A stretch of 64,000 nt of DNA from an uncultured Candidatus Saccharibacteria bacterium (GTDB lineage: Bacteria; Patescibacteriota; Minisyncoccia; Phycocordibacterales; UBA918), in assembly GCA_964638425.1 (NCBI GenBank), contig CAZWYM010000003.1:16289-80288 (forward strand), in the 5' to 3' direction. Numbering within the stretch: the stretch's first letter is position 1; the number at the start of each line of letters is the position of its first letter. A model generated the notes under the pieces. That model saw only the letters and a list, made by a program, of their open reading frames with translations, was not told the origin of the DNA and did not search any database. Below are positions 6,725-44,496 of the stretch, in pieces. Both the position numbers and the translations under genes were made by a program.

Positions 6725-6750
6725 TTCCAACATTTAGTTTTATATAACAA

Positions 6751-8173: not shown

Positions 8174-8177
8174 ACTT

Positions 8178-9164: not shown

Positions 9165-9196
9165 TATTTTAATAGCGAATATGATACGTTTGCACA

Positions 9197-11103: not shown

Positions 11104-11165
11104 GACTTTTTGACAAATATTTTTACTGAATGTCGAATTATACGGCTTAAGTATTGAACCTATGC

Positions 11166-11190
11166 TCATGATATAATTTAAAACGTATTA
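11166..11190 (+). promoter_or_regulatory. candidate extended -10 promoter (TGaTATAAT) upstream of 11217 gene
   Basis: The sequence ctcaTGaTATAATtt lies about 30 nt upstream of the ATG. Confidence 0.35.
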
Positions 11191-11216
11191 ATAGAGATAG
11201 TATTTACGTAAGAAAT

Positions 11217-11738: not shown

Positions 11739-11765
11739 CAAGTCTCTCGGGATTACAATCTCAGC

Positions 11766-11800
11766 AAAAACGAGCACCTTTGGGTGCTCGTTTTTGTTTT
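11766..11800 (+). terminator. rho-independent terminator
   Basis: AAAAACGAGCACC-tttg-GGTGCTCGTTTTTGTTTT follows the stop at 11738. Confidence 0.6.
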
Positions 11801-11835
11801 ACCCTGATTCTGGCGAATGGTATACTTCTACAACT

Positions 11836-12621: not shown

Positions 12622-12886
12622 ACAGACATTTACTGAATGCGTTAAAGACGTTGTAAAAGCTATTCCACGTGGAAAAACAATGAGTTACAAGGAAGTTGCA
12701 ATACGCGCAGGAAATCCAGGGGCAGCACGTGCAGTTGCGCGCATTATGAGCGCTAGTTTCGATGATTCAGTACCCTGTCATCGAGTTATCTGTTCAAATG
12801 GTACTCTTGGTGGGTATAATAGAGGTGGTACAAAGTCAAAGCAGGAAATACTCCTCCGCGAGGGTGCACTCTCTAATGTAATATGA
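12608..12886 (+). CDS. MGMT/Ogt-family DNA-binding domain protein (mini-Ogt, retains PCHR Cys)
   Basis: The 92 aa sequence …MSYKEVAIRAGNPGAARAVARIM…VPCHRVICSNGTLGGY… matches the C-terminal domain of O6-alkylguanine-DNA alkyltransferase with the active-site PCHRV motif. The start at ATG 12608 overlaps the upstream gene end. Confidence 0.65.
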   Translation: MAKAEQTFTECVKDVVKAIPRGKTMSYKEVAIRAGNPGAARAVARIMSASFDDSVPCHRVICSNGTLGGYNRGGTKSKQEILLREGALSNVI

Positions 12887-13233
12887 ATTTCCAAAACGAC
12901 ATACAAACAATTGAAAGAAGGATCTCAGAACTACAACGAAAAGTCGATAGCTTTGAACGTGACGAACAACAACTGAAACCGCGTCTTGAAAAAGCTAAGA
13001 AGCTCGTCACTGATGGACAGAATGAACTTGAACGATTACAGGTCTCAACGAGAAAGATTCAAGAAACAATCCAACAGTCGCAACGTGATGTTCGAAGCAT
13101 TACAGACGAGCAACTCAGAATCCTCAACGAGAAAACACGTATAGTTACGCAAATTGCTTCTCAAAATAAAGAAATGGAACGTGTCCAGAGAATGAGTGAT
13201 GAAGAAGTTCGAAGGAACGCCCTTAAAAAGTAG
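12883..13233 (+). CDS. hypothetical coiled-coil protein
   Basis: A 116 aa ORF rich in E/K/Q/R with heptad-like periodicity and no known motif. Confidence 0.35.
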   Translation: MNFQNDIQTIERRISELQRKVDSFERDEQQLKPRLEKAKKLVTDGQNELERLQVSTRKIQETIQQSQRDVRSITDEQLRILNEKTRIVTQIASQNKEMERVQRMSDEEVRRNALKK

Positions 13234-13236
13234 ACC

Positions 13237-13833
13237 ATGGCATACTCATACGCAATCGAACAAGCAATACGCGCCGCATCAGTCCTTCATAAGGATCAGG
13301 TTCGTAAGGGGCAAGTTCCTTATCCGTATATTACCCACCTCTATGCGGTTGCTATGATTGTGTCTGACTACACGAATGACGAAGATACTATCGTTTCTGC
13401 TCTTCTTCATGACACTCTTGAAGATACTGACTACACAGAAGCTGAAATCGAAGATGATTTCGGAGGGAAAGTTCGAGAAATTGTTTCTTCTATAAGCGTA
13501 CCCCCACTCAAGAGCAACGATAAGGCTGGAATAACAGAACAAAAGAAGCAATACCTCAAACAGCTAAAGAGCGCCAGTGAAAATGCACTCATTGTTGTTG
13601 CGGGTGACAAAATTCACAATATGCGTTCAATTGTTGAGGAGTACTACGATAACCACTCTGGTTTTATTGCAGAATTTGGAAGCCAACTTGAACCTCGATT
13701 ACAGATGTACCAAGAGATAAGCAATGCACTTAATCGCAATTTGAAAAATGCTATACTAGCCGAGTTCAATAGTGTTTTTACTGAATATAAGAATTTCATC
13801 CACAATGTCGAAAAGAAGCGCAACGAATATTGA
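13237..13833 (+). CDS. HD-domain hydrolase (RelA/SpoT-type HD; small alarmone hydrolase-like)
   Basis: The sequence HLYAVAMIV…ALLHDTLEDT matches the RelA/SpoT hydrolase HD motif. No synthetase domain is present. Confidence 0.6.
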   Translation: MAYSYAIEQAIRAASVLHKDQVRKGQVPYPYITHLYAVAMIVSDYTNDEDTIVSALLHDTLEDTDYTEAEIEDDFGGKVREIVSSISVPPLKSNDKAGITEQKKQYLKQLKSASENALIVVAGDKIHNMRSIVEEYYDNHSGFIAEFGSQLEPRLQMYQEISNALNRNLKNAILAEFNSVFTEYKNFIHNVEKKRNEY

Positions 13834-13849
13834 GCAGAAAAAAGCCCCA

Positions 13850-15124
13850 ATGAAGCTTGTTAAGGTGAAGAAAAAGAATTCACTTACTGAGTATATTTTG
13901 CCAAAAAGTGGTCTCCGGGTGCTCTATATGTACCGCCCAAAAACAGGCGTCATAACAACAGACATCGTATACAAAGTAGGATCACGTGATGAAGATAGGG
14001 GAGAAACCGGAATTGCACATATGCTTGAACATATGCTCTTTAAGCCGACACAACAGGATTTGAAACGGGGAAGTGAATCAGCAGCAATGGACTTCGAACG
14101 TGAGACGGGAGCAACACTTAATGCAAATACATGGAAGGATAGAACTTCATATTACTTCTCATACCCAAAGGAGCATTTTAATAGAGCACTTCAAATCGAA
14201 GCTGAGCGAATGCAAGATGTTGTCTTGACTGATCTTGAGTTTTTACCTGAACGAACCAATGTACTCAGCGAATTTGATATGTATGCAGGAGATGAACAGT
14301 TTTCACTTTCAGTTGAAATGATGTCAGTTGCATTTCGCTCACACACCTATGGTCACGAGACTATCGGATACCGCGAAGATATTGAGGCATACACCACGGA
14401 CAAACTCCAAAAATTTTATAAAAAATTCTACGCTCCACACAATGCTGTACTCATTATCGTTGGAGATGTTAAAGAGCAGGAGATGCAGGAAGCCGTACTA
14501 AAGCATTTTGGAAACCTGAAGCAATCACCTATTGAAATCAAAAGAGCAGAGATATGTGAACCCAAGCAAGAGGGTATTCGTTCAGTTACGATTAAGCGAC
14601 CTTCGACAACCCAAGTCTATGCTCACGGAGTTCGACACGAAGGATTTCCTTCAAAAGCGTGGTTTGAAACCATGATTGTTTTTGAAATGCTCGCAAGTGG
14701 AGACGACAGCATCCTCCACAAAAAACTCATTGATAAAGGACTTGCAACAAATATTAATGTATCGCTAGAGCCATCACGAGAAAAAAACCTAGCAATACTC
14801 TTTGTGACACTAAACGACAAGATGAATCACGAGAGCATGCAAAAGTTACTCCCTACAATTATTCACGACCTTACCCTAAAGGAAATAACTCCATATCTTC
14901 AAAAAACTATTGCAAAGGCACTCACCTCAGAATTCATTTCACGAGAAAATAGCCTTGGGATATGTAGTGAGCTTGTCGAGTACGTCAGCGCTGATTCATG
15001 GGAAGATTTCTTCAATTCTGAAAAAATCCTTTCATCAATAACAGCTCACGATATTAAAGAAAGGATACAGCTACTCTTTACTGAAGAAAATACGACTATT
15101 GGCTATTTCAAAGGTACCAAATAA
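13850..15124 (+). CDS. M16-family zinc peptidase (pitrilysin/insulinase-like), active subunit
   Basis: An HxxEH inverted zinc motif (HMLEHMLF) lies near the N-terminus. The start was chosen at ATG 13850 after the upstream stop. The ORF caller's 13772 start overlaps the HD gene. Confidence 0.75.
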   Translation: MKLVKVKKKNSLTEYILPKSGLRVLYMYRPKTGVITTDIVYKVGSRDEDRGETGIAHMLEHMLFKPTQQDLKRGSESAAMDFERETGATLNANTWKDRTSYYFSYPKEHFNRALQIEAERMQDVVLTDLEFLPERTNVLSEFDMYAGDEQFSLSVEMMSVAFRSHTYGHETIGYREDIEAYTTDKLQKFYKKFYAPHNAVLIIVGDVKEQEMQEAVLKHFGNLKQSPIEIKRAEICEPKQEGIRSVTIKRPSTTQVYAHGVRHEGFPSKAWFETMIVFEMLASGDDSILHKKLIDKGLATNINVSLEPSREKNLAILFVTLNDKMNHESMQKLLPTIIHDLTLKEITPYLQKTIAKALTSEFISRENSLGICSELVEYVSADSWEDFFNSEKILSSITAHDIKERIQLLFTEENTTIGYFKGTK

Positions 15125-15125
15125 T

Positions 15126-16406
15126 ATGCGAATACAATCAGAACAAACAAAAGCTCTCATTTCTACCTCAATCATCCGCGAAGATGAACGATTTGTAACC
15201 GTATCACTTTCGACAAAGGAAACGGTTGAACAGAGCGCCTACGCACAAGCGCTTAGACTTGTGTATGGGGAGATACTTACCTCTGGTTCAGGAAAGCTCT
15301 CACGTGAAGCATTTCACGATGCACTAAGTAAACTAGGTTCAGAAATTAAAATCTCAAGTAGCGGAACCCTTACCACCGCATCACTTCGCTCACTCGACAC
15401 AAAACTAGGAGCAACAATAAAGCTTTTTGAAGCAATGATAAAAGCTCCACTTTTTGAAGCAACGGAGTTACAGAGAATCAAGGAATACCTTAGAAACAAT
15501 CTACTCCTATTAAAGGAAGATGCTCGTTCTGAATCCTACCGAAACTTTGTAGCTTCACTCGTGCATTCAGATGATCCTCGTTACATTTTTGGAGTTGATG
15601 AGGTAATTCTAAATTTAAAAAAGGTAACAAAGCAAGATCTTATTAAATACCACACGTCACTCTGGAAAAGTGATTGGATTGTAACCTGCGGTGGAAGTGA
15701 AGCGTGCTGTAAGACATCACTATCTGCAGTTGAGAAACTACGAAAATTCACTCATTCAAAAACACTCACTGAGTCAAAGCAACTTAAAATTGAACAAACT
15801 GAAGGCAAAAGAGTCGTACTCACTGACATTCCCAACAAACAAAATATTGAATTCAGCATTGGGGGAAGTGTTCAATTAACCATGAACGACCATGACTACA
15901 TTCCGCTCATGTTTGGTATGTGTGTACTGGGAATCTACGGTGGTTTTTCTGGAAGACTTATGAGTAGTGTGCGTGAGAAGGAAGGACTTACGTATTCAAT
16001 CTACGCGCAGCTCGAAGGCATAACACTTCACGACCAGGGCTTTTGGAGAATCATGACGTTCTTTGCTTCAAAAGATGCTGTAAAAGGAATCACTTCAACG
16101 TTGCGTGAAGTAAAGAAAATTGCCGAGGAAGGTATCACTGCAAACGAGCTAAAACGTTTTAAATCCATTCTTAAGACACGCTACGCGCTCATCGAGGACT
16201 CTCTCCTTAAGAAAGTACGAGAATCACATACAGTGAGGATTGCTGGATTGAGTGTTGATGAGTTTATGTTGCTTCAAAATGCAATTGAGAAGCTGAGCGT
16301 AACCGAGGTTAATTCTGCACTAAAAAAGCATATCAATGTAAAGTCACTTATTATCTCTGGAGCAGGACCGATTTCATCTGTTGCTCCTGACATACGCAAA
16401 ATATAA
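15126..16406 (+). CDS. M16-family peptidase, second (non-catalytic-type) subunit
   Basis: It is adjacent to the active M16 gene and has the M16 fold pattern but no HxxEH motif. This is the usual paired arrangement. Confidence 0.6.
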   Translation: MRIQSEQTKALISTSIIREDERFVTVSLSTKETVEQSAYAQALRLVYGEILTSGSGKLSREAFHDALSKLGSEIKISSSGTLTTASLRSLDTKLGATIKLFEAMIKAPLFEATELQRIKEYLRNNLLLLKEDARSESYRNFVASLVHSDDPRYIFGVDEVILNLKKVTKQDLIKYHTSLWKSDWIVTCGGSEACCKTSLSAVEKLRKFTHSKTLTESKQLKIEQTEGKRVVLTDIPNKQNIEFSIGGSVQLTMNDHDYIPLMFGMCVLGIYGGFSGRLMSSVREKEGLTYSIYAQLEGITLHDQGFWRIMTFFASKDAVKGITSTLREVKKIAEEGITANELKRFKSILKTRYALIEDSLLKKVRESHTVRIAGLSVDEFMLLQNAIEKLSVTEVNSALKKHINVKSLIISGAGPISSVAPDIRKI

Positions 16407-16464
16407 TATACGTACACGTATTGCTAGAAATATGGCTCAATATCTTGTATAGTAGCACGTAACT

Positions 16465-18405
16465 ATGTCTGGAAACGAAATCAGAAAAAAATACCTCGAA
16501 TTCATGGAGAAAAACGGTCATGCGGTTATTCCGTCGTCTGCACTTATCCCTGAAAACGACCCAACAACACTTTTTACCGGAAGTGGTATGCAACCCCTTG
16601 TGCCATACCTTATGGGTCAGGATCACGCCATGGGTACACGTCTCACAAACTCTCAGAAGTGTTTCCGTGCTGAAGATATCGAGGAGGTTGGCGACAACAG
16701 ACACACTACTTTCTTTGAAATGCTTGGAAACTGGTCTCTTGGGGACTACTTTAAGGAACACCAAATCCCTTGGATATACCGCTTCCTCATGGATGAAGTG
16801 AAACTTAATCCAGAAAACTTCTATGTCACTGCATTTGCTGGAGATGCAGGGGCAGGAGTACCTCGTGATGACGATTCAGTAGAAATCTGGAAGACTCTTT
16901 TTAGCGAAAGAGGAATTACTCACGGTGTCGCGCATATGGGTTCTGAAAAGGAAGGTAGTGAGCGAGGAATGCAGGAAGGGGAGCGAATCTTTTTCTATGA
17001 TTCATCAAAGAACTGGTGGTCACGAGCAGGGAGACCTGAGAAAATGCCTGTTGGAGAGATTGGTGGGCCTGATACAGAAATGTTTTATGACTTTGGTACA
17101 CCACACGACACAAAATTTGGCCCACACTGTCATCCTAACTGTGATTGTGGGCGGTTCCTCGAAATCGGGAACTCTGTGTTTATTGAATACATAAAGACCG
17201 AGGATGGTTCATTTAAATCACTTCCGAAGCAAAACGTTGACTTCGGAGGTGGCCTAGAGCGAATCACTGCAGCATCAGTAGGAAATGCAGATGTCTTTGC
17301 TATCGACCTACTCCAAAACGTTATTACAAAGATAGAGGAGTTGTCAGGGAAAAAATATTCTGACCACACCGTTGCATTCCGTGTTATTACCGACCACATC
17401 CGTGGGGCGGTGTTTATGATTGCTGAAGGTATCTACCCAAGTAACGGAGAACAGGGATACTTTACAAGACGACTCCTTCGTCGAGCAGTGCGGTACGCAG
17501 ACATTGTTGAAATTCCGCACGGTGACCTACGTCTTCTCGCAAAGAGTGTTGTAGATACCTACAAGGACCACTACACAAAGATCGCTGAACATGAAGCAGA
17601 TATCATCGATTCTATTCATGGCGAAGAAGTACAATTCCGAAAAACACTCGAAAAAGGGCTTAAGGAATTCAATAAAGTAGCTCTGAAAGTGACCATCCCT
17701 GTGACTGAACGTGAGGGGAAAGTTGTTATCGATACATCAAAGAAGACACCAGCAACAAAGTTTATTACTGGAGAGAATGCATTCAATCTCTTCACGACGT
17801 ACGGTTTTCCAATTGAGCTCACTGTGGAAATTGCTAAAGAGCGCGGTATGACTGTGGCAATGAACGAATTTGAGGCACTCATGGTAAATCACCGAGAGCT
17901 TTCTCGTTCAGGAGCAGAGCAAAAATTTAAAGGCGGTCTTGCTGATCACTCTGAAAAAGTTGTTGCGTACCATACCGCTACACACCTTCTTCTTGCCGGA
18001 CTACGAAAAGAACTAGGAGATTCTGTACACCAAGCAGGTTCAAATATTACTAATGAACGACTCCGTTTTGATTTTACCTACGAAGAGAAAGTACCTGAAG
18101 AAACTTTGCGTAAGGTAGAGCAGTTCGTAAATGACGCAATCAAGAAAGGAGCGAAGGTAACTATCGACACACTTGCAAAGACAGAAGCAGAAAAAGACCC
18201 AACAATTGAGGGAAGTTTTTGGGACCGATACCCAGACCAAGTAACGGTGTACACCATACGAGACAATGACGGCGTCGTATATTCACGAGAACTTTGTGGT
18301 GGACCACACGTAGAGACAACTGAACACATCAGCGGGACATTCAAAATTCAAAAAGAAGAATCGTCTTCAAGAGGCGTTCGGAGGATTAAGGCTGTTCTTG
18401 AATAG
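16465..18405 (+). CDS. alaS: alanyl-tRNA synthetase, short form lacking C-terminal (C-Ala) domain
   Basis: The N-terminal catalytic core (…NDPTTLFTGSGMQPL…QKCFRAEDIEEVGDNRHTTFFEMLGNWSLGDYFK…) and the editing-domain HxxxH/CGGxH motifs (HTATHLLLAGLR…CGGPHVETT) are present. The protein ends at 646 aa. Confidence 0.85.
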   Translation: MSGNEIRKKYLEFMEKNGHAVIPSSALIPENDPTTLFTGSGMQPLVPYLMGQDHAMGTRLTNSQKCFRAEDIEEVGDNRHTTFFEMLGNWSLGDYFKEHQIPWIYRFLMDEVKLNPENFYVTAFAGDAGAGVPRDDDSVEIWKTLFSERGITHGVAHMGSEKEGSERGMQEGERIFFYDSSKNWWSRAGRPEKMPVGEIGGPDTEMFYDFGTPHDTKFGPHCHPNCDCGRFLEIGNSVFIEYIKTEDGSFKSLPKQNVDFGGGLERITAASVGNADVFAIDLLQNVITKIEELSGKKYSDHTVAFRVITDHIRGAVFMIAEGIYPSNGEQGYFTRRLLRRAVRYADIVEIPHGDLRLLAKSVVDTYKDHYTKIAEHEADIIDSIHGEEVQFRKTLEKGLKEFNKVALKVTIPVTEREGKVVIDTSKKTPATKFITGENAFNLFTTYGFPIELTVEIAKERGMTVAMNEFEALMVNHRELSRSGAEQKFKGGLADHSEKVVAYHTATHLLLAGLRKELGDSVHQAGSNITNERLRFDFTYEEKVPEETLRKVEQFVNDAIKKGAKVTIDTLAKTEAEKDPTIEGSFWDRYPDQVTVYTIRDNDGVVYSRELCGGPHVETTEHISGTFKIQKEESSSRGVRRIKAVLE

Positions 18406-35059: not shown

Positions 35060-35896
35060 ATGGAGAAAACTCATTTTTTAAATGGCAGATTTGTTTCGGA
35101 AAGTGAGCTTCTCATTTCTCCACGTGATCTTGGGTATTCACGAGGATATGCTGTATTTGATTTTTTGGTTACTTATCATCATAGGCCTTTTATGTTAAAA
35201 AGCCATGTTGACCGCCTTTTTCGTTCAGCTGAAGCAATAACACTTTATATTCCATGGACAAAAGAACAAGTTTCGGAGTGGATATTAAAGACTCTTGATG
35301 CTAATAAAGCAATGAATACTGAAAAAGTAATACGTATAACGATTTCAGGCGGTTCCTCGTTTATACTAACTCCTACAGATTCACCAACTATTGTAATCAC
35401 AATTGACTCTATGATTTACTGCTCTCCAGAAAACTATAAAGATGGGGTTGAGGTGAATTTGGTTGAATTTCAACGCTATCTACCTCAAGCGAAGACAAAT
35501 AATTATATTGAAGCAATTCGTAGTATGAACGGATCAAATACTCAAAATATCGATGAATTGATATACCACTCCAATGGTATGGTGCATGAAGGATCTCGTT
35601 GTAATATTTTTGCTGCCATAAATGGAAGACTTCTCACCCCTAAAACTAATATTCTTGAAGGGATAACACGAGGTGTGTTACTTGATATCCTAAAATTGAC
35701 AGTTCCAGTTGTAGCTGAGGATTTTTCAGTTGATGCCTTACATTCGGCATCTGAGATATTCCTCACCGCAACAGGTAAAGAGATAATGCCTGTAACTAAA
35801 ATAAACGGTGTTCGAGTAGGAAGTGGTTCAGTTGGTACTCTCACTAAGGGGGTTATGCAACAGTACAACTCTTTTGTTCACTCAGCTCTTTGGTAG
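35060..35896 (+). CDS. class IV aminotransferase (branched-chain/D-amino-acid aminotransferase fold)
   Basis: A 278 aa ORF with fold-type IV PLP enzyme pattern. The N-terminal region matches YSRGYAVFDFL. Later motifs are EGSRCNIF and GITRG. Confidence 0.75.
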   Translation: MEKTHFLNGRFVSESELLISPRDLGYSRGYAVFDFLVTYHHRPFMLKSHVDRLFRSAEAITLYIPWTKEQVSEWILKTLDANKAMNTEKVIRITISGGSSFILTPTDSPTIVITIDSMIYCSPENYKDGVEVNLVEFQRYLPQAKTNNYIEAIRSMNGSNTQNIDELIYHSNGMVHEGSRCNIFAAINGRLLTPKTNILEGITRGVLLDILKLTVPVVAEDFSVDALHSASEIFLTATGKEIMPVTKINGVRVGSGSVGTLTKGVMQQYNSFVHSALW

Positions 35897-35911
35897 TAAT
35901 GGTTCTAATTA

Positions 35912-36724
35912 CTAACTCCACATTGATAATGAATCGTTTTTGAGTGTCAAAAACGAATTAAGTGTTAGTCTGGTCTCACCAGGGCTGATTTGTTCAACCT
36001 GATGGAAATTTCGACTGCGGAAAATAATTAAATCGCCAGTCTCAGGAAAAATCTTTGTAGGTCTTTCATTTTGTAGGAATGATGGATTAAATCCATTTGG
36101 ACCTTTTTCAAAAATATCTTCATTATAAATATTATCCTCAGGTATCCAAGGGTGATTATAGATAATTAATTCTCCCCCTACACTTGGCATCTGTAGATAC
36201 AGAACGATAGCAAATTGTTCTTCTGATGCAGATACTTCCCACCCAGGGAGTTGGCTTGGTGCGTAGTCAAAATGTAATGTACTTTTTGCCCCCATTGCTC
36301 GGACAAGACCGGAAAAATAAACCGCATTATGCATGCTAGGTTCGTGCGCTAGAGATACAACATAGTCTTTTGAAAACAACTTGATTATTTTCTGAATAGG
36401 TTCTGATACACCAGAAAACATTTCGTCCTTGACTCGGACACATTCTGGAACAAGCTTGAAATAAAGGTCCTTTCCATTTATCTTGGAGTGGTATTCTGTT
36501 GCACTTATTCCAATCCTCCCTTGTCTATACTCAGCATCTTTATACCATGATATGTCATGCTCGTTGATGTTTTTTACGATGATATCTAGTTCATTTTGAT
36601 CAAAAAAATTCGAGATCTTAATTGCTGCAATATTGTTTGTAGCTAATAAAGGTAAGAGCACCTTTGCTTCCAGATCCCTATCAGCTTCTACTTTCTTTAT
36701 TTCCCAGTCTTTTGCATATTCCAT
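35912..36724 (-). CDS. Fe(II)/2-oxoglutarate-dependent oxygenase-like protein
   Basis: An HxD (LHFDYAP)…H (NFHQVEQI)…RxT (RLTLNSF) arrangement typical of the 2OG-oxygenase facial triad plus 2OG-binding Arg. The size fits the PhyH/hydroxylase class. Confidence 0.5.
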   Translation of the reverse strand: MEYAKDWEIKKVEADRDLEAKVLLPLLATNNIAAIKISNFFDQNELDIIVKNINEHDISWYKDAEYRQGRIGISATEYHSKINGKDLYFKLVPECVRVKDEMFSGVSEPIQKIIKLFSKDYVVSLAHEPSMHNAVYFSGLVRAMGAKSTLHFDYAPSQLPGWEVSASEEQFAIVLYLQMPSVGGELIIYNHPWIPEDNIYNEDIFEKGPNGFNPSFLQNERPTKIFPETGDLIIFRSRNFHQVEQISPGETRLTLNSFLTLKNDSLSMWS

Positions 36725-36806
36725 GATGTGAATAAATTATACCACCATAAGTCATATATGTTCAGATTATTTGCAAAGTGTTACAATTTCCATACACATA
36801 TACAAT

Positions 36807-38258
36807 ATGGAGCCGGTAAATATCATTATTATTGGAGTAGGACCCCATGCTCGGAGAATTTATATTCCAATACTCATGGAGCTTTCTAAAAGTATGCCCA
36901 TACGTTTGGTTGGGGCTGTGGACCTGCAGAAACAAAAAGAAGTCGTTGATTTGTATTTGAAGGAGAAAGAATGCTTCCTAAAGGCATTATATTTTGATCC
37001 ATTTGACGCAGCAGAGGGGTTGCCAGATAATTGTATAATCACACTTGATACTCTTGTTAAAGATTTAAATATACATGGCGTGGTGATTTCTACAGAGCCA
37101 ACCGCACACAAGGTGTATGCAGAATGGGCATTAAAGCGTGGCCTGCATATTCTTATGGATAAACCTATCTCTGTGAGAAAATCTATTTGTACAGAATCCT
37201 CACAAGCACAGGCCCTAATAAAGGATTACGAGGATTTGTTAGAGTTATACAATCAGCAACAACTCATTCGACCAACTGCCTTTTCAATTAGTGCACAAAG
37301 GAGATACGAATATGGATTTGAGATGGCGAAAAAATTAATTGCAGAAGTAAGAGATCGGTTTAATATGCCAGTCACTTCAATTCAAGCCATGCACGCAGAT
37401 GGAACGTGGATGTTCCCCAAAGAGGTCCTTTCCCAAGAATCTCATCGACACTTTGATGGTTATGGAAAAGTTTCTCATAGTGGCTACCATATATTTGATA
37501 TGGTGTGGCAATTATATGAAGCTGGACTCGTCGACAAAAAACGACCAGACCACCTAGAAATTCTTTCGTCCCCATTATTGCCAAGTGGCCTTAGTATTGA
37601 TCTGAATGAAAATGATTATCAAAAATATTTTGGTCACGAGTATGAATCAATACCACTTTCGGAGAAGGAGTACAGAGAAAAGGTTAAAACATATGGTGAA
37701 ATTGACTCCTTCAATATCATCAGACTTTTAAAGGGAAACGAGAATATTTGTAATATTTCTATAAATCTACTTCATAGTAGTTTTTCCCGACGTTCATGGG
37801 CAATACCTAATGCAGACCGATATAAAGGAAACGGTCGCGTTAAGCATCAGCAGTTCATTATTCAACAAGGACCATTCCAATGCATTCAAATCCATAACTA
37901 CCAGTCAAAAGGTTCTCATGATGTTGACAATTCAACTGAGTATGGAGCTGGCGGTAATAATCATTTTGATATTTACGTCTTTCGTAATAGAGAAATGTTC
38001 GGATCTGGAGAAGCTTTTTATAAAGTATCAGCCAAGGACCTCGAGGAGAAGGAGTGTGTAAGTCGACTGAATGTTGAAAATGCAAAAGAACGTGTGATTT
38101 TAGAATTTGTAAACTTTATGCTCGGAAAAGTTAATGTAGATAATTTAAAATCAAACATAGACACACACAACATACCTGTTAAGATTATGAGTGGTGTATA
38201 TCAATCAAGTATACGACTAATTAATCATCAGAATCCTTTAATATCAATGTCAATATGA
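36807..38258 (+). CDS. Gfo/Idh/MocA-family NAD(P)-dependent oxidoreductase-like protein
   Basis: An N-terminal Rossmann motif (IIIIGVGPHARRIYIPIL) and a conserved EKP-like region (ILMDKPIS). The C-terminal extension is long. Confidence 0.5.
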   Translation: MEPVNIIIIGVGPHARRIYIPILMELSKSMPIRLVGAVDLQKQKEVVDLYLKEKECFLKALYFDPFDAAEGLPDNCIITLDTLVKDLNIHGVVISTEPTAHKVYAEWALKRGLHILMDKPISVRKSICTESSQAQALIKDYEDLLELYNQQQLIRPTAFSISAQRRYEYGFEMAKKLIAEVRDRFNMPVTSIQAMHADGTWMFPKEVLSQESHRHFDGYGKVSHSGYHIFDMVWQLYEAGLVDKKRPDHLEILSSPLLPSGLSIDLNENDYQKYFGHEYESIPLSEKEYREKVKTYGEIDSFNIIRLLKGNENICNISINLLHSSFSRRSWAIPNADRYKGNGRVKHQQFIIQQGPFQCIQIHNYQSKGSHDVDNSTEYGAGGNNHFDIYVFRNREMFGSGEAFYKVSAKDLEEKECVSRLNVENAKERVILEFVNFMLGKVNVDNLKSNIDTHNIPVKIMSGVYQSSIRLINHQNPLISMSI

Positions 38259-38890
38259 AAGGCTCAATCTATTTAATCGGCGGTGGCGAAATTGGAAAAG
38301 GTGAAACTGCAAAAATTGATAATGAGTTAATAGAAATTACTCCTGCGGACAAGACACTTGTTTTTTTTGGCACAGCAGCAGGGGATAATCGAGAGTATAT
38401 TAATACGATTGAGTCGGTTTTTAAGTCCAACCTAAAGGTTATTGCTCCAACAGAGAAAGATGGTCCTGAGTTCGCACTCTCTTCCATAAATTCTGCATCA
38501 ATTATATATCTAGGAGGAGGTACAACCGAATTATTGTTAAATCTCTTTGAGAAATGGAGGCTTGTTCAGCCACTCCGTCACGCATTAAGTCGCGGAGCGC
38601 ATCTTGTAGGAATGAGTGCAGGGGCACAAGCTTTATCAGCATGGTATGTTCATGAGGATGAGAACTCTATGGAACTGCGAAGAGGATGGGGTTTCGTTTC
38701 CAGCTGTATACTTGTACATGCAGATCAGAATTCATCAGCACAAGCGGAAGTACTCTGGGGAGATAGCCAAGATGCTAACCAAAATCCTTTTATAGCGATT
38801 GGAGAAGGTGCAGCATGGCGTGTAAATCCTTCAGGGGCATTGAAAATTGGGACCGGCAAAATATGGCATTCCAAAATCACTGAATCATAA
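38255..38890 (+). CDS. peptidase S51 family (dipeptidase E/cyanophycinase-like)
   Basis: An IYLGGGTTELL motif and the nucleophile-elbow GMSAGAQAL match the S51 family. It is translationally coupled to the upstream gene by an ATGA overlap. Confidence 0.65.
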   Translation: MKGSIYLIGGGEIGKGETAKIDNELIEITPADKTLVFFGTAAGDNREYINTIESVFKSNLKVIAPTEKDGPEFALSSINSASIIYLGGGTTELLLNLFEKWRLVQPLRHALSRGAHLVGMSAGAQALSAWYVHEDENSMELRRGWGFVSSCILVHADQNSSAQAEVLWGDSQDANQNPFIAIGEGAAWRVNPSGALKIGTGKIWHSKITES

Positions 38891-38957
38891 AGAAATGCGT
38901 TGTCCTCAATCCACTTTTTCTGACATAGTGCATTAAAAATGCCCCATTTTTTAATTA

Positions 38958-38986
38958 TTGACTATAATTATTTTCTATCGTATATT
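38958..38986 (+). promoter_or_regulatory. sigma70-like promoter TTGACT-N17-TATATT plus strong SD (AAGGAG) for AlaRS-like gene
   Basis: The -35 is at 38958-38963 and the -10 at 38981-38986. AAGGAG lies 7 nt before ATG 39032. Confidence 0.5.
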
Positions 38987-39031
38987 AATTAATAGTTTCG
39001 CTCATTGTAATCAAACATAAGGAGAATCGTC

Positions 39032-40153
39032 ATGATTAGTTCTTTGAAAGAAAGTTTCCTTGATTATCATCAGGCACGAGGGTTTTGTATATATGAGTCC
39101 TTTCCTTTGGTAATTGATGACCCTACAATCCTATTCACAAATGCTACAATAACACCATTTAAGTCCATGTTCATGGGAGAGGGGGAGAGAATAAATTATG
39201 CTCTTGTTCAGAAATGTCTACGTTTAGGAGGGACAGGGGGGAATCTTGAAACACCTCGTTCAAACATGAACTACACTTCCTTATTCGATATGCTCGGAAG
39301 CGGACTATTTGATGTTAATCAAGACTCTGCAGTAACTTACTTCGTTGAAGTACTCATCGAGCTTGGTCTCCAGAAAAAAAATCTCGTGTTTAGCACCACT
39401 TATAATTCTGGTTTTGACTTGGCTTTGGAACGAGCAGGAATAAGTGCGAGTCAAATCAGACTCTTCAACGATCCAAAAGAGATCCAGCACGAATGGAGTT
39501 TTGGGGAAGGAGATTTGCATGGTTGTGGAGTGGTGGCTTGGTGTGTTCCTGAAAGCTATCTAGGACACACTTTCGACAGTATCCCACAAGAACTTTTTCA
39601 GTATGTTCAAATAGGAAGGATAGTCCATATCGATGGTGTTGCACGAGTTTCAACTGTAGAGTTGTTCCCATACTCAGCATACGATATGGGAATCGGGTTG
39701 AATAGGGTTGAGGCAGCTCTCAATGGGAACTGTGAAATGTCTATGTATCCATGGAGAATGCTTTCGAAACAACTTCAATCTTCAATACATGGGCTTTATA
39801 AAACCGATGCCCATTACATGGCGAATCTCTATCGTGTAGCTGAGGATCTGATTGGTGAAGGGCTTCTTCCTGGGAAGAAGAAGCATGCTTATGCTCTTCG
39901 GAAAGTAGTACGATTACTTATCGAGGAGATTTGGCTAAAGTCAAAGGCATTGGTAGATATTTACACAGTGTTGCGGGAGTCGATTAACACATCCGCTTAT
40001 CGAGACTTGCTCATCCAGGTTCTTTCTCAGGAAGAAGTAGCTTTACGTGGGGTACTTTCTGTTGCCATACAAAAGCAGAAGAAGTACCCCGGCATGAATC
40101 CTGAAGAACTGCGTTCAACGTTCGGAATTCGTCCGAGCCTTCTCAAGCTTTAA
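39032..40153 (+). CDS. stand-alone alanyl-tRNA-synthetase catalytic-domain paralog (class II aaRS-like amino-acid activating enzyme)
   Basis: The 373 aa sequence ESFLDYHQARGFCIYESFPLVIDDPTILFTNATITPFKSMFMGE…QKCLRLGGTGGNLET…YTSLFDMLGSGLFD aligns with AlaRS motifs FF..GH..V.SSLVP.NDPTLLFTNAGM..FK…QRCVRAGGKHNDLE…HHTFFEMLGNFSFG. It has no tRNA-recognition, editing or C-Ala domains. The bona fide alaS is elsewhere in the window. Confidence 0.7.
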   Translation: MISSLKESFLDYHQARGFCIYESFPLVIDDPTILFTNATITPFKSMFMGEGERINYALVQKCLRLGGTGGNLETPRSNMNYTSLFDMLGSGLFDVNQDSAVTYFVEVLIELGLQKKNLVFSTTYNSGFDLALERAGISASQIRLFNDPKEIQHEWSFGEGDLHGCGVVAWCVPESYLGHTFDSIPQELFQYVQIGRIVHIDGVARVSTVELFPYSAYDMGIGLNRVEAALNGNCEMSMYPWRMLSKQLQSSIHGLYKTDAHYMANLYRVAEDLIGEGLLPGKKKHAYALRKVVRLLIEEIWLKSKALVDIYTVLRESINTSAYRDLLIQVLSQEEVALRGVLSVAIQKQKKYPGMNPEELRSTFGIRPSLLKL

Positions 40154-40380
40154 GCACTAAAAATTTTTAAGAGGTAACAAAACGAGGGTGCCAACACACC
40201 TTCGTTTTTTTATTTTGAATAGCAAGGTGAGAAAATGGGTAAATCTGATTAAATTTGTAGAGACAATCTGATCAGTTGATACCCAAGTATTCTTTTCATA
40301 TATAAAAGCATATCACTTAATATTTCATAAAGAAAATGACGCGAATAATATCGCGTCATTTAGTTTGAGGCATTACATAC

Positions 40381-41139
40381 TTAAGGAACTATATCTGCTA
40401 TTTCGTTGATGACCTGAGCCCATGTAACAATCCTCTTGATGTCTGGAACAGAATCAAATACTCTAACTTCAACTGTACCGTGTGTCGAAATTCGAATCAA
40501 ATCCCAGCACTGTCTTGGGTCTTCTTCACACCCTCTTGCACGCATAGCTTCATGGAATTCTTCCCATGAAGTATATGCCTGAGGAAGTGTGTCTGAAGCC
40601 ATTAGACGATACAGTGCCATTCTTTGCCCGTTGCAAGTATCACCCATATTTTTTAACTCATAGAAATGCTTAATGAGTCGATTATAGACAATAATTGCTT
40701 CGGTTGTATTTCTTACACCAATATGGAAATGTACCGCTGCGACTCGACAAGCAGCGAGAAGCACTTCTTGTGGGAGTCTTTCCACAATACGGGCATATCT
40801 ACCTGTTGGATCAGGATACACTTCTACAGACATCTCTTGAGGGGCCACTGGTATATGCTCCAGTTTAAGTCCGAGAGTACTAGCAGCTTCAGCAGCTGTT
40901 TTTTCAATTTGAAAAAGCTCAGCGTAGAGATTACTTAGCAAGGTTGGACTTGTACGCATTTCTAATTGACAAGCAGAAAGCTCATAACCGTATTTCCCAT
41001 TTTTCGGTAAAAGATTAAGAACCGATACCGCATGTGGAACAATTACATTGCCATCCATCAGAAAGCATTCTCGTTCAACACCAAAATGTCCTCTATGTTC
41101 AGGCTTAAAGCAAAACCTACCCGTAAACGAATTATTCAT
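40381..41139 (-). CDS. GCS2-family carboxylate-amine ligase (YbdK/EgtA-like glutamate-cysteine ligase family 2)
   Basis: The motifs HFGVERECFLMD (compare YbdK LGIELEMQVV), AVHFHIGV (compare HVHVGC) and GTVEVRVFD (compare GTVEVRVMD) are present. The start was chosen at ATG 41139, preceded by AAAGGGGTG. The ORF caller extended it to 41235. Confidence 0.65.
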   Translation of the reverse strand: MNNSFTGRFCFKPEHRGHFGVERECFLMDGNVIVPHAVSVLNLLPKNGKYGYELSACQLEMRTSPTLLSNLYAELFQIEKTAAEAASTLGLKLEHIPVAPQEMSVEVYPDPTGRYARIVERLPQEVLLAACRVAAVHFHIGVRNTTEAIIVYNRLIKHFYELKNMGDTCNGQRMALYRLMASDTLPQAYTSWEEFHEAMRARGCEEDPRQCWDLIRISTHGTVEVRVFDSVPDIKRIVTWAQVINEIADIVP

Positions 41140-41600
41140 TTCTACACCCCTTTCAAGGATAAAAGATTTAAAAGAACAAAATATATTCGAAGAATTTTTT
41201 GTTGAAATATAATCAACAAAAAAACTCCTCGTCACTGCACATGTTTAATAAACATGTAAAGGGACGAGGAGTTTTATCAACTCACGTGGTACCACCCTCT
41301 TTAGAATTTACATTTCAAAATAAATTCACTTATTGACTCATACACATACCACATTAAGGTATGCAGACATCAATTATCCCATGATTACGGAGGATGCCGG
41401 ACTTTCACTAACGCAGTAGTCACCCTTCTTCACTTGGAAGAAAATTGTGGCCCAATCTCGTACAATTTCAAATTGACGAGACCACAATATGGGTTTTCAG
41501 TGCTCAGAACGAACTACAATAACTAAATTTGATAGTACCGTAGAAAAACACTCCATGCAAATGCTGGTTAACTGAAGCGGATTTTTGTTATAATCACATA

Positions 41601-42047: not shown

Positions 42048-42479
42048 CTAGTTTGTCCCGAGACTCGAAATTAATTTTTCGACCAAAGCTTTGATTTGAT
42101 CAAGAGTTTTTTCTGATATCTCCCGCGTCGCAAATTTCGGATTTTCGATTTCCCACCATACCACTTTTTGATTCTCACTAAGAAACTCTGGAATAAAGGG
42201 GTGCTCAGCCATAGAGATTACAACATCGAATTCCTCAATCATTTCAGGAGTAAGTTTCTTCATTCTGTTATTTCTGATACTCATCCCATTCTCTTCCATG
42301 AGTTCAAAAAAGTCAGGAGTTCGAAAGTATTTTTGGATAAGGTCATTATCTGGAGCATCATCCGCACCCACATACGTTCCAGCAGAATCAGCGTTAGATG
42401 ATTGTGTTAATTTATTATACAAAGCAGCCGCCATTTGGCTCCTAAACTGATTGTATTTGCAGATAAAGAGTACTTTCAT
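42048..42479 (-). CDS. low-molecular-weight phosphotyrosine phosphatase/ArsC-family arsenate reductase
   Basis: An N-terminal P-loop (VLFICKYNQFRSQMAAAL, a CX5R motif) is diagnostic of the LMW-PTP/ArsC fold. Confidence 0.7.
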   Translation of the reverse strand: MKVLFICKYNQFRSQMAAALYNKLTQSSNADSAGTYVGADDAPDNDLIQKYFRTPDFFELMEENGMSIRNNRMKKLTPEMIEEFDVVISMAEHPFIPEFLSENQKVVWWEIENPKFATREISEKTLDQIKALVEKLISSLGTN

Positions 42480-43444
42480 AATGAAAATGATTTTACTGGT
42501 CGCGAATAAAAGAGAACCTCCTCATCATAGCTGTTCGGAATAACACCTTGCGGACAAAAAACAACATGGCAATCAAATGGTGTAAACACGGGGCCTGTGT
42601 CACCTGAAGCAATGAGTGTCTGTGCGGGTAGATATTCAAAATTTTTTAAAGGTTTGTTCAGTGTGAATGTTTTATTGGGGAAAATTAGTGAATCATCAAT
42701 ATAATATTCAACATGTTCATGTGTAGTAACCTCCTTAACAGGTTCAATCATATTAAGATTTTGCAACAAGGCGAGAGTTGAATCTATAGCAATTTTGAAT
42801 GAACGAGGACTTTCGTGCGTACCAGACTCAATGACAAGAACAGAAGCTGGATTAGTAGTAGCTCCATAAAAACTACTAACGGGCTTTCCGATTTGAACTG
42901 TATCTATATTTGAAATAACTAATTGGATAGGGAAGCCACGTACTAAATCAGTCCGCAGTGAGCCATTGAGGTTAATGATCATTGGATCTGAATCTTGTGT
43001 TGTACTATGAATATCAAGCCCAAACTCAAATTCCTGGAAAATTGGTAAAAGTTCCTTTGTACGTAAAACTTCATATGATGAATGACTGTTGTTTTTGAGT
43101 AAATCATCCGGTAGACGGTTCATATTTACATCAACAAACCTCGCGCGAACCCTCTCTTCAGTTGTACTTGCTTTAAAATTATTTTCTGCGGCTTTTATAT
43201 TATTCAAAACAAGATAAACAGAACCTTTTAAAAGCTTCTGTCTAAGTTTAAATTCATCTAGTAAATATTGAAATACAGCGAGTCCTGAAGGTTCATTACC
43301 GTGAGTACAGGCAGTAATTCCTAAAACTGGACCTGGTTCATTTCCTTGAATTAAAACAACTCCAGGAACACCATTATGCTCCATACTCTTAATTCTATTC
43401 AGAATACCTTCGAGATCATTCATATCTATATACCGTAACAACAA
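42476..43444 (-). CDS. succinylglutamate desuccinylase/aspartoacylase (AstE/AspA) family zinc deacylase
   Basis: The motifs ITACTHGNEPSG (compare AstE ISAGIHGNE) and GLDIHST (compare HLDLHTA) are present. It overlaps the ArsC gene by 4 nt. Confidence 0.7.
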   Translation of the reverse strand: MLLRYIDMNDLEGILNRIKSMEHNGVPGVVLIQGNEPGPVLGITACTHGNEPSGLAVFQYLLDEFKLRQKLLKGSVYLVLNNIKAAENNFKASTTEERVRARFVDVNMNRLPDDLLKNNSHSSYEVLRTKELLPIFQEFEFGLDIHSTTQDSDPMIINLNGSLRTDLVRGFPIQLVISNIDTVQIGKPVSSFYGATTNPASVLVIESGTHESPRSFKIAIDSTLALLQNLNMIEPVKEVTTHEHVEYYIDDSLIFPNKTFTLNKPLKNFEYLPAQTLIASGDTGPVFTPFDCHVVFCPQGVIPNSYDEEVLFYSRPVKSFSL

Positions 43445-43486: not shown

Positions 43487-43529
43487 GGCTGGTATTTTGG
43501 TACTATTTTGTGATACCTATGAAAAAGAA
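43487..43529 (+). repeat. direct repeat copy 1 (duplicate of trpS promoter/5' end)
   Basis: The sequence CTTTGTAAACGGCTGGTATTTTGGTACTATTTTGTGATACCTATGAAAAAG. It is 51/52 identical to 44503-44554. Confidence 0.7.
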
Positions 43530-44496
43530 AACTCTCCATGATGTAAAATCGCCTGTTATATATCAAGCAAAGTCTGGTGCTATTGAATTGCGTGGTGACT
43601 TGGAAAAAGAGACTGTTTGGGCAACACTTGACCAAATCGCTACAGTTTTCGGGCGTGATAAATCAGTAATTTCTCGACACCTAAAAAATATTTTTAGTGA
43701 AGGTGAACTATCAAGAGCTTCAGTTGTTGCAAAAAATGCAACAACTGCCGCAGATGGAAAAACGTATAATGTTGAATACTACAATCTTGATGTAATTATT
43801 TCAGTCGGATATCGCGTTAACTCAAAGATTGCTACGCAGTTCCGCCAATGGGCGACCAGGACACTCCGCGAACACATCGTAAAAGGGTACACGCTTAACC
43901 GGAAGCGGATTGGGGCAAACTATGATGCTTTTATGAAGAGTGTGAGTGACATCCAAGCCCTCCTTCCTGAACATGTAACTCTCGACCCAAAGGCTGTTCT
44001 TGAACTTATTAAAGAATTTGCGAGCACGTGGGTTTCACTTGATGCATACGACAAAGAATCTCTCATACTTAAGGGTGTTAGTAAAAAGAAAGTGACTTTG
44101 GTGAGTGATGAACTCTATAAAGCAATTCAAATACTGAAACATGACCTAGAAAAGAAAGGCGAGGCCACAGAAATTTTTGCTCACGAGCGTCGTGAAGGAA
44201 ACCTCGAAGGTATTGTAGGAAATGTCATGCAGTCATTTGGTGGAAAGTCTGTATATCCGACAGTGGAAGAGAAGGCAGCGCACTTACTTTACTTCATGGT
44301 AAAAAATCATCCATTTACCGATGGTAATAAGCGTTCAGGTGCGTTTGCGTTTATATGGTTCCTCAGAAAAACTGGAGTGAAAGGAGCCAAAAACATCAAC
44401 CCATCGGCACTTACAGCACTCACGCTCCTTATTGCAGAAAGTGACCCGAAAAGGAAAGAACAAATGGTCGCTCTTGTGACACAGATGTTGCGATAA
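43519..44496 (+). CDS. RhuM-domain / Fic-Doc family fusion protein (toxin-like)
   Basis: The N-terminal RhuM-like region is (…SVISRHLKNIFSEGEL…NVEYYNLDVIISVGYRVNSKIATQFRQWAT…). The C-terminal Fic/Doc motif is HPFTDGNKRSGAFAFIWFL. The start is at ATG 43519. The ORF caller used GTG 43510. Confidence 0.75.
   Translation: MKKKTLHDVKSPVIYQAKSGAIELRGDLEKETVWATLDQIATVFGRDKSVISRHLKNIFSEGELSRASVVAKNATTAADGKTYNVEYYNLDVIISVGYRVNSKIATQFRQWATRTLREHIVKGYTLNRKRIGANYDAFMKSVSDIQALLPEHVTLDPKAVLELIKEFASTWVSLDAYDKESLILKGVSKKKVTLVSDELYKAIQILKHDLEKKGEATEIFAHERREGNLEGIVGNVMQSFGGKSVYPTVEEKAAHLLYFMVKNHPFTDGNKRSGAFAFIWFLRKTGVKGAKNINPSALTALTLLIAESDPKRKEQMVALVTQMLR

Follow-up and report, generated by a model that had tools for sequence, protein, structure and literature searches.

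A conserved family of truncated alanyl-tRNA synthetase-like proteins encoded in a five-gene island of Patescibacteria, with a possible role in aminoacyl transfer

The closest described counterpart of the protein examined here is AcmF of the ascamycin cluster of Streptomyces sp. 80H647, a truncated alanyl-tRNA synthetase (AlaRS)-like protein that contains only the aminoacylation and tRNA-recognition domains and cannot activate alanine. AcmF takes alanine from Ala-tRNA(Ala) and attaches it to the sulfamate amine of an adenosine analogue, which is bound in what was once the adenylate site. The same cluster encodes AcmD, a canonical AlaRS paralog that makes the donor and serves as a self-resistant target copy, and AcmE, a hydrolase that removes the alanine. 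AcmF is the only truncated AlaRS-like enzyme to have been characterized, and it is tRNA-dependent. Here, we analyze an AlaRS-like open reading frame (ORF) and the four genes upstream of it in a 64,000-nucleotide stretch of DNA (the window) from an uncultured Candidatus Saccharibacteria bacterium (contig CAZWYM010000003.1). The protein may be an AcmF-like enzyme that transfers alanine from Ala-tRNA to an amine made by its neighbors, with an S51 peptidase reversing the reaction and the housekeeping alaS supplying the donor; we give this reading a probability of roughly 45%.

Other described systems share individual traits with the locus. The microcin C peptidases MccG (family S51) and MccF (family S66) cleave aminoacyl-nucleotide amides as self-immunity, MccG being a proven carboxamide-bond hydrolase, and MccD is a class I methyltransferase-fold enzyme. 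In puromycin and cystocin biosynthesis, the Pur10 dehydrogenase and the Pur4 aminotransferase install an amine on a nucleotide ribose, and Pur6 couples the aminoacyl group, for which an aminoacyl-tRNA donor has been proposed. AsnA, PoxA/EpmA, the SerRS-like amino acid:carrier protein (aa:CP) ligases, and HisZ are free-standing class II aminoacyl-tRNA synthetase (aaRS) paralogs in non-translational roles, and the window ORF appears to be another. However, the AsnA, PoxA, and SerRS-like paralogs shed their tRNA-binding modules and keep an intact ATP site (the non-catalytic HisZ excepted), whereas the window protein keeps its tRNA-recognition domain and has remodeled ATP/Mg positions. Our searches of the accessible literature found no description of the family to which it belongs or of its gene cluster.

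The ORF and the genuine alaS of the same genome are as follows.

39032..40153, forward strand: AlaRS-like protein of the "NATITP-type" family, subfamily A1; 373 amino acids, ATG start, last gene of the island
Residues 1 to ~238 of this protein: predicted aminoacylation fold; residues ~239-373: predicted shortened helical tRNA-recognition domain
16465..18405, forward strand: the genome's own alaS, 646 amino acids; matches to tRNA-synt_2c (E = 9.7e-112) and tRNA_SAD, without C-Ala

The 373-residue ORF matches the Pfam family tRNA-synt_2c (E = 2.8e-22; profile positions 2-320 of 552), and it scores 73.4 bits against the NCBIfam equivalog TIGR00344 (alaS), below the cutoff of 457. The motifs that an earlier sequence-only reading of this DNA (the original prediction) had recognized as LFTNA, QKC-R-GG, and FDMLG-like are present as ILFTNAT, QKCLRLGG, and LFDMLGS, and the genuine alaS lies at 16.5 kb as that reading had placed it. 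The description of the ORF as a catalytic core and nothing else needs to be revised. An AlphaFold2 model of the protein (pLDDT 93.3, pTM 0.89) superposes over its full length on the 1-441 fragment of E. coli AlaRS (Foldseek E = 3.8e-21, TM 0.77, ~408 columns); the model therefore indicates that a shortened helical tRNA-recognition domain is retained alongside the catalytic core. No Pfam match to the tRNA_SAD editing domain was found in the ORF, and the editing and C-Ala parts are not present. The housekeeping alaS product, which ends with the tRNA_SAD motif and lacks C-Ala, has the "small-AlaRS" form reported for the candidate phyla radiation (CPR) and DPANN.

A search of 5.8 billion proteins recovered 116 homologs of the ORF, nearly all of them full length (367-390 residues) and almost all from Patescibacteria. 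The few named sources are Nomurabacteria, Levybacteria, Saccharimonadales, and "Patescibacteria group", and the proteins are currently labeled "alanyl-tRNA synthetase" or "alanine--tRNA ligase-related protein". When 1.84 billion cluster representatives were searched with a profile, only ~13 clusters scored above 300 bits, followed by a few intermediates (P0129, P0132, P0133, and P0156) and then by canonical AlaRS of ~870 residues at 181 bits or less. All NATITP-type paralogs share the motif FTNAT(I/V)TP where AlaRS has FTNAGM. We built a neighbor-joining tree (200 bootstraps) that included canonical AlaRS, CPR alaS, mini-AlaRS, and the NATITP-type paralogs. The paralogs split from every genuine AlaRS, i.e., canonical, CPR, and mini forms, in 100% of bootstraps, and the A1 clade that contains the window protein was likewise monophyletic in 100%; a second subfamily, A2, is more basal (28-38% identity). 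The window protein shares 18% identity with the alaS product of its own genome.

These findings uphold the original prediction that the ORF is a free-standing, repurposed class II aaRS paralog, and the sequences identify it as an intact member of an old, conserved, and distinct family. The 18% identity and the separate clade exclude a recent duplication of the genome's alaS. A pseudogene or degraded alaS fragment, which had been named as the outcome that would overturn the prediction, is ruled out by the intact ORF, the mostly full-length homologs, the invariant active-site residues, and the high-confidence fold. Two other candidates were tried and rejected. A second alaS-like ORF directly follows the A2 gene in loci L015 and L016 and prompted the idea of an alpha-subunit of a split AlaRS; this ORF is a complete mini-AlaRS with catalytic and tRNA-recognition domains and all canonical motifs, and not a C-terminal half. 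Phage carriage was rejected, as no relatives of the protein were found on IMG/VR contigs.

The active site combines strict retention at some positions with equally strict replacement at others. Positions are given in E. coli numbering, taken from a phmmer alignment to 3HXU and a MAFFT alignment of paralogs, mini-AlaRS, and alaS; the residue table covers 106 family members, 88 of them A1. All A1 members have V/I/L for E183, G for W211, and R for N212 (R196 in the window protein), and 97% have Q for E209; in the motif-2 loop, K73-H74 has become T/S/A-G and R85-H86-H87 has become N-Y-T. The window protein itself reads V/Q/R at E183/E209/N212 and T/G/N/Y/T at K73/H74/R85/H86/H87, and these states are fixed in 97-100% of its 88 relatives. 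We take the acidic residues on the strands before motif 3 (E183 and E209) and the motif-2 loop to handle Mg2+ and the beta- and gamma-phosphates, by class II analogy, and so to serve the activation half-reaction only. The housekeeping alaS in the window keeps E183, E209, N212, and D235. Members of A2 keep E209 and N212 and lack E183, with D235E in some.

The retained positions are R69, F90, M92, W170, V214, D235, and G237 (100% of A1 members) and R242 (95%). In the structure of AlaRS with ATP and alanine published in 2025, a motif-2 Phe and a motif-3 Arg sandwich the adenine ring, a motif-2 Arg holds the alpha-phosphate, a Val contacts the alanine methyl group, and Asp235 holds the alpha-amino group. 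Because R69, F90, V214, D235, G237, and R242 are kept, and given these roles, the adenine, alpha-phosphate, and alanine pocket of A1 proteins is predicted to be intact. Among the alanine-binding residues that the original prediction had singled out for inspection, R69, D235, and G237 thus persist and the Asn position is changed. Two basic motifs are conserved in the helical domain: PG(N/K)KK(H), which aligns with AlaRS PSNENRGY, and TFGI(K/R)P. The latter presumably corresponds to DTYGFP of AlaRS. The Asp of the Asp-plus-Asn pair that reads G3:U70 is replaced by A/S/G in the family table.

The partners of the AlaRS-like gene are the four genes upstream of it, which the original prediction had not mentioned. 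Together they form an island at 35060..40208.

35060..35896, forward strand: class IV (fold type IV) pyridoxal phosphate-dependent aminotransferase (AT4), 278 amino acids; Aminotran_4, E = 8.6e-43; first gene of the island
35912..36724, reverse strand: 2-oxoglutarate (2OG)/Fe(II) oxygenase with a WelO5-like fold; WelO5, E = 5.2e-19, and 2OG-FeII_Oxy_3
36807..38258, forward strand: GFO/IDH/MocA NAD(P) dehydrogenase, 483 amino acids; GFO_IDH_MocA N-terminal Rossmann domain, E = 3.6e-8
38255..38890, forward strand: S51 serine peptidase (PepE/cyanophycinase/MccG family), 211 amino acids; Peptidase_S51, E = 4.6e-20
39032..40153, forward strand: the AlaRS-like gene
40179..40208, forward strand: intrinsic terminator (12-bp stem and T-run) that closes the island 3' of the AlaRS-like gene

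Loci were mapped by tblastn and ORF clustering, 14 from species-representative genomes and 6 from metagenome contigs. The aminotransferase, oxygenase, and dehydrogenase genes are syntenic with the AlaRS-like gene in 14/14 A1 loci and the S51 gene in 13/14, and the A1 gene always comes last in the set. Catalytic residues are preserved throughout. The aminotransferase, whose closest solved relatives are the branched-chain amino acid (BCAT) and D-amino-acid transaminases, conserves its catalytic K145 (AKTNNY) in 12 orthologs. The oxygenase shows no variation at H151-F-D153 and H241 among 12 orthologs, and this H-x-D...H triad marks it as a predicted hydroxylase rather than a halogenase. The dehydrogenase, for which an alternative upstream TTG at 36771 would give 495 residues, conserves GxGxxA and D130-K131-P132 ("EKP"-type) motifs among orthologs; its stop overlaps the start of the S51 gene (38255..38258). 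The S51 triad S121/H155/E184 (Ser-His-Glu) is intact and invariant in 11 orthologs, and the solved relatives of this peptidase are distant, the best being cyanophycinase (E = 1.1e-5).

Accessory genes vary between A1 loci. A YqcI/YcgG gene occurs in 7/14 (a Pfam call for L007 and L017), the characterized members of this family being heme N-hydroxylases of free arginine; an alpha/beta-hydrolase occurs in three loci and an APH-type kinase in two. A mini-AlaRS of 430-440 residues with canonical motifs heads the cluster in L009, L011, and L017 (3/14), and L013 has a 78-residue remnant. Overall, the mini-AlaRS genes that adjoin some AlaRS-like genes encode 425-453 residues and their motifs are fully canonical. 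They are of the same kind as Tupanvirus TuAlaRS and CPR small-AlaRS, from which the window ORF differs in falling outside all genuine AlaRS with full support and in lacking E183, E209, and N212. No carrier protein was found by Pfam among the island genes or conserved accessories, and no tRNA-Ala gene was found in the clusters, the nearby tRNA genes being those for Asn, Ser, His, and Tyr. In L004 (~5240..17377), a unit of tRNA-His, two small ORFs, AT4, 2OG, GFO, S51, and AlaRS-like genes is present twice in tandem with a period of ~6.25 kb, either a real island duplication or an assembly artifact.

Parts of the island recur in other settings. The A2 genes lie in the following loci.

L014, 3462..9732
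L015, 6998..12459
L016, 9971..15480
L019, 4780..10861
L020, 3015..17267

An S66 (MccF-family) peptidase accompanies A2 in all five of these loci, as S51 accompanies A1, and a mini-AlaRS adjoins the A2 paralog in three of them (L015, L016, and L020). Their gene set comprises class I S-adenosylmethionine methyltransferase-fold genes, an ornithine/diaminopimelate-type or AdoMet decarboxylase, and two dCTP-deaminase-like genes, together with ThiF, a PaaK-like adenylating enzyme, a tandem GNAT, and YqcI/YcgG. Judged by gene content, the A2 clusters resemble the tool set of microcin C, but no MccA peptide is evident in them. In L016 (14371..15480, reverse strand) and L020 (10200..11231, reverse strand), a class II paralog of 343-369 residues with an AsnRS core, similar to archaeal AsnA and without an anticodon-binding domain, adjoins the A2 AlaRS-like gene and the S66 gene and is a second aaRS-derived protein in those clusters.

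The dehydrogenase belongs to a family of 948 homologs that is also found without the AlaRS-like gene. In L024 (1188..14227) and L025, the gene for a GFO-like dehydrogenase (56% identity) comes immediately after that for a genuine class I LysRS, and the oxygenase of L024 is WelO5-like and 51% identical to that of the island. Nearby in L024 are genes for an 824-residue class II LysRS-like protein, a NUDIX protein, an ABC exporter, an MprF C-terminal (LPG_synthase_C) aminoacyl-tRNA-dependent transferase, and a pyruvoyl arginine decarboxylase. This contig type occurs in 91 collection blocks, and the module lies in a low-GC patch. The L024 module looks like a lysine version of the island module, and its recurrence suggests that the oxygenase-dehydrogenase pair works with aminoacyl-tRNA donors. 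In L023 (6752..14222) and L026 (4870..13221), the GFO-like gene is found with a fluorothreonine-transaldolase-like serine hydroxymethyltransferase, an IOR-alpha-like thiamine pyrophosphate enzyme, a short-chain dehydrogenase/reductase, a glycosyltransferase, and NUDIX genes; the conserved unit also holds two unknown proteins and appears to be an uncharacterized pathway. Since the oxygenase/dehydrogenase module recurs with aaRS, aminoacyl-tRNA, and sugar or nucleotide genes, it favors a sugar or nucleoside scaffold and an aminoacyl-tRNA donor.

The analysis directly shows the fold, domain content, residue pattern, synteny, island status, and independence from GCS2 (see below); from the gene associations and the described systems, we infer how the reactions are ordered, the use of a tRNA-bound donor, the type of scaffold, and the biological function. 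The 2OG/Fe hydroxylase would first hydroxylate a small molecule, for which a sugar or nucleoside is the most plausible scaffold, the GFO/MocA dehydrogenase would oxidize the new hydroxyl to a ketone or aldehyde, and the class IV aminotransferase would turn this into an amine, giving a C-H to C-NH2 route. The AlaRS-like protein would hold the scaffold in its former ATP/AMP pocket and transfer alanine to the amine, with Ala-tRNA(Ala) docked via the retained tRNA-recognition domain as the donor, as in AcmF. The S51 peptidase may then hydrolyze the alanyl-amide for self-protection or activation, as do MccG, MccF, and AcmE. In some relatives, the cluster-borne canonical mini-AlaRS may supply the donor, serve as a resistant target copy, or both; because the window island lacks such a gene, its Ala-tRNA(Ala) would presumably come from the housekeeping alaS (16465..18405). 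The pathway would yield an antimetabolite of the alanyl-amide type that may mimic alanyl-adenylate or an aminoacyl-nucleoside. It is possible, if doubtful, that this island makes an antibiotic of that kind, i.e., an aminoacyl-nucleoside or aminoacyl-adenylate mimic, without a ribosomal peptide or a nonribosomal peptide synthetase, its aaRS-derived enzyme reversing the second half-reaction onto an engineered amine.

The likeness to AcmF, which we compared by its published description, extends to several traits. Both proteins are truncated to the aminoacylation and tRNA-recognition domains, both are substituted at the Asn212 equivalent and lack the Asp of the G3:U70 reader, and both are encoded with a hydrolase that could take off alanine, here the S51 peptidase directly upstream. 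The extra mini-AlaRS in several related loci recalls AcmD. AcmE is an alpha/beta-hydrolase in contrast to the S51 peptidase of the island, the ascamycin cluster carries sulfamate-nucleoside genes where the island has an aminotransferase, a 2OG oxygenase, and a GFO dehydrogenase, and AcmF comes from Actinomycetota rather than Patescibacteria. The placement of an S51 peptidase with an intact triad immediately upstream of the AlaRS-like gene resembles microcin C systems, and the S66, MccD-like methyltransferase-fold, decarboxylase, ThiF, GNAT, and YqcI/YcgG genes of the A2 loci all occur in mcc operons. Unlike those operons, the window island encodes neither an MccA precursor peptide nor MccB; an aaRS-derived enzyme would perform the nucleotide-forming step, with Ala instead of Asp. 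The pathway logic is that of puromycin, in which a dehydrogenase and an aminotransferase make an amine to which an amino acid is then coupled, although the aminotransferase is of another fold type, Pur6 is unrelated to the AlaRS-like protein, and the island adds a 2OG hydroxylase.

Several observations weigh against an AcmF-like transferase. The substitutions in AcmF are N->Q and D->E, whereas the window family has N->R and keeps D235. R69 (motif 2) and R242 (motif 3), the arginines of ATP chemistry, are retained, and the role of E183 and E209 as Mg/phosphate ligands is our assumption by class II analogy. An arginine-for-metal substitution is known in HisRS, and by analogy N212R could be such a swap, in which case the protein may adenylate directly. 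Recognition of tRNA(Ala) by the protein is not assured, since the Asp of the G3:U70 reader is replaced. The nearest solved relatives of the aminotransferase work on amino acids and not on sugars. The window island lacks a mini-AlaRS, a tRNA-Ala gene, and an exporter; in an antibiotic cluster, this would be unusual.

The strongest alternative, a serious one although we regard it as less likely, is an ATP-dependent, tRNA-independent ligase that makes Ala-AMP and passes alanine directly to the neighbors' amine, like AsnA or the SerRS-like aa:CP ligases. The adenine, alpha-phosphate, and alanine contacts (R69, F90, R242, V214, D235, and G237) are present in 95-100% of members, the invariant R196 could stand in for the catalytic metal as in HisRS, and most A1 islands, including that of the window, have no dedicated AlaRS or tRNA gene; the more basal A2 proteins even retain E209 and N212. 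Yet the A1 proteins have replaced E183 by V/I and E209 by Q and have lost the basic residues of the motif-2 loop, while conserving a tRNA-recognition domain with PG(N/K)KK and TFGI(K/R)P for which a ligase would have no need. The island encodes no carrier protein, the L024 sister module combines complete aaRSs with an aminoacyl-tRNA-dependent transferase, and the one characterized truncated relative, AcmF, depends on tRNA. The original prediction of a repurposed aaRS paralog is supported, and its preference for tRNA-independent or carrier-dependent ligation less so than AcmF-like transfer: the helical domain and its basic motifs are retained, the Glu and Asn positions are replaced, and a carrier is lacking.

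A non-catalytic decoy appears improbable. Here, the protein would sequester an alanyl-adenylate-like AlaRS inhibitor of hosts or competitors, and the island, with its S51 hydrolase and in some cases an insensitive mini-AlaRS, would detoxify such compounds. Saccharibacteria live on Actinobacteria, which make compounds of this type. The retention of Ala-adenylate-binding residues together with the loss of putative catalytic metal ligands would suit a binding protein, S51/S66 peptidases and additional copies of aaRSs are known means of resistance, and the island has no exporter. However, it is not obvious what part the aminotransferase, hydroxylase, and dehydrogenase, whose catalytic residues are intact and whose synteny is strict, would play in detoxifying an aminoacyl-nucleoside. 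The invariance of R196 and the conservation of the tRNA-facing motifs point to catalysis and RNA binding more than to mere sequestration.

Cell-envelope modification seems no less improbable. In this case, an amine would be installed on the sugar of a glycolipid or wall polymer and then alanylated in a tRNA-dependent manner, much as MprF aminoacylates phosphatidylglycerol with Ala- or Lys-tRNA as donor, with S51 trimming the product. The linkage of the L024 sister module to LysRS and an MprF C-domain transferase is compatible with this, the missing exporter would be no obstacle, and MprF-type enzymes use two amino acids, Lys and Ala. GFO/MocA dehydrogenases typically act on sugars. Against this, Pfam recognized no membrane or secretion domains in the five island proteins, no gene for a glycosyltransferase, a flippase, or lipid handling consistently accompanies the island, and its sporadic, mobile occurrence is unlike that of an envelope trait shared by a whole lineage. 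Finally, it is very improbable that the protein is a genuine but divergent synthetase, charging either tRNA(Ala) or a different tRNA with alanine or with a non-canonical amino acid that the neighboring enzymes supply. It does keep R69, D235, and a pocket of alanine size (V214 and G237) along with the aminoacylation fold and the tRNA-recognition domain, but the score of 73 bits falls far below the 457 cutoff, conserved activation residues, the editing domain, and the Asp of the G3:U70 reader are gone, a normal alaS lies in the same window, and the unchanged pocket size makes a new amino acid unlikely.

The setting of the cluster is consistent with a mobile island that integrates at tRNA loci. 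A1 clusters lie beside tRNA-Asn (L009 1153, L010 5436, L011 1950, L013 5032, and L017 2733), tRNA-Ser (L012 5149), or tRNA-Tyr (L003 11333), and never beside tRNA-Ala; in the window, no tRNA gene was found within 64 kb. GC content is 0.37-0.40 over 32-44 kb, the island region, compared to 0.43-0.48. The sister contig L021 carries the same backbone in the same order (identities of 76% for SacchDH, 63% for HisK, 59% for GCS2, 83% for RhuM-Fic, and 75% for TrpRS), and between HisK and GCS2 it has NYN and GATase genes in place of the five-gene set. The RhuM-Fic gene of the window (43510..44496, forward strand), just before trpS, encodes a 328-residue protein with a RhuM N-terminal domain fused to Fic/DOC; its L021 counterpart (83% identical) is at 3169..4140 (reverse strand).

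The features on the 3' side of the island are as follows.

40361..40334, reverse strand: terminator of the GCS2 gene, separate from the island terminator
40381..41139/41235, reverse strand: short GCS2/YbdK-like ligase (~252 amino acids), convergent to the AlaRS-like ORF
41439..41257, reverse strand: candidate T-box leader (RF00230) directly upstream of GCS2; 37.1 bits, E ~1e-6 to 1e-5

The short convergent GCS2 ligase had been described correctly, but the significance attached to two adjacent amide ligases did not hold up. GCS2 is a backbone gene unrelated to the AlaRS-like gene, and their proximity is a coincidence of insertion: the adjacency is confined to the window's own contigs (0/18 other loci examined), the short GCS2 belongs to a wider Patescibacteria family with at least 379 hits, the sister contig L021 carries it without the island, the island region is low in GC, and GCS2 has its own candidate T-box leader. 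Functional coupling of the two was rejected for lack of conserved adjacency, with the presence of GCS2 in the island-free L021 backbone and its own leader and terminator. The short GCS2 gene is usually followed by a class I GATase gene (L021 6001..7693; L022 6001..7565); this partner is missing in the window, where the AlaRS-like island occupies the corresponding position.

The T-box match upstream of GCS2 is below the gathering score of 93, yet spans the full model. The leader includes a T-box sequence that is nearly perfect (AGGGUGGUACCACG) as well as an intrinsic terminator that competes with it; its Stem I is absent or atypical, and no specifier codon was identifiable by inspection. The same feature lies upstream of the GCS2 ortholog in L021 (5735..5987), where the match scores 32.4 bits and again covers the full model. 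A tRNA-sensing leader on a carboxylate-amine ligase is unusual in CPR bacteria. An AstE/AspA zinc deacylase (42476..43444, reverse strand) was considered as a shared partner on account of a counterpart in L020 (15249..16067, reverse strand) and rejected; the two are 25% identical, the gene is absent elsewhere, and the match is probably coincidence.

Expression signals precede the AlaRS-like gene itself.

38958..38986, forward strand: sigma-70-like promoter match TTGACT-17-TATATT, a consensus match only
39019..39024, forward strand: Shine-Dalgarno sequence AAGGAG, 7 nt before the ATG of the AlaRS-like ORF

The original prediction had credited the gene with its own promoter and a strong Shine-Dalgarno sequence. 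Both the consensus-like match and the Shine-Dalgarno sequence are present, but the promoter is only plausible because promoter-like matches in the region are no more common than in shuffled sequences (19 observed, 23 expected). The 141-nt spacer from the S51 gene to the AlaRS-like gene is 42% identical between loci, i.e., not conserved, and no Rfam match was found in it when regulatory RNAs including T-boxes were looked for. At 40067..40219 (forward strand), the end of the ORF and the terminator hairpin coincide with a weak L20-leader match (27.9 bits, E = 0.025) that is most likely spurious.

By analogy, the locus would belong to a known kind, i.e., aaRS-derived enzymes of small-molecule aminoacyl transfer with self-protection by a peptidase or an extra aaRS; what would be new are the clade, the partner enzymes, and the phylum. 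NATITP-type proteins should not be annotated or counted as AlaRS. The combination of E209Q, N212R, and E183V with an untouched adenine/alanine pocket offers a natural experiment for telling apart the elements of a class II active site that are needed for activation from those needed for transfer. If true, AcmF-like transfer would make this the second independent case, after AcmF, of an AlaRS scaffold turned into a small-molecule aminoacyltransferase and the first from the CPR, and the compact, conserved five-gene cluster would open a way to study how organisms not culturable alone wage chemical warfare or protect themselves. Patescibacteria are generally regarded as having almost no secondary metabolism. 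If the antibiotic reading is also true, NATITP-type proteins would be a previously unrecognized enzyme family with two architectures, A1 with S51 and A2 with S66 and a microcin-C-like tailoring kit. The reuse of the hydroxylase-dehydrogenase module with LysRS would then point to a modular logic of "aaRS plus acceptor-builder" for aaRS inhibitors, which these epibionts may use against their hosts or competitors.

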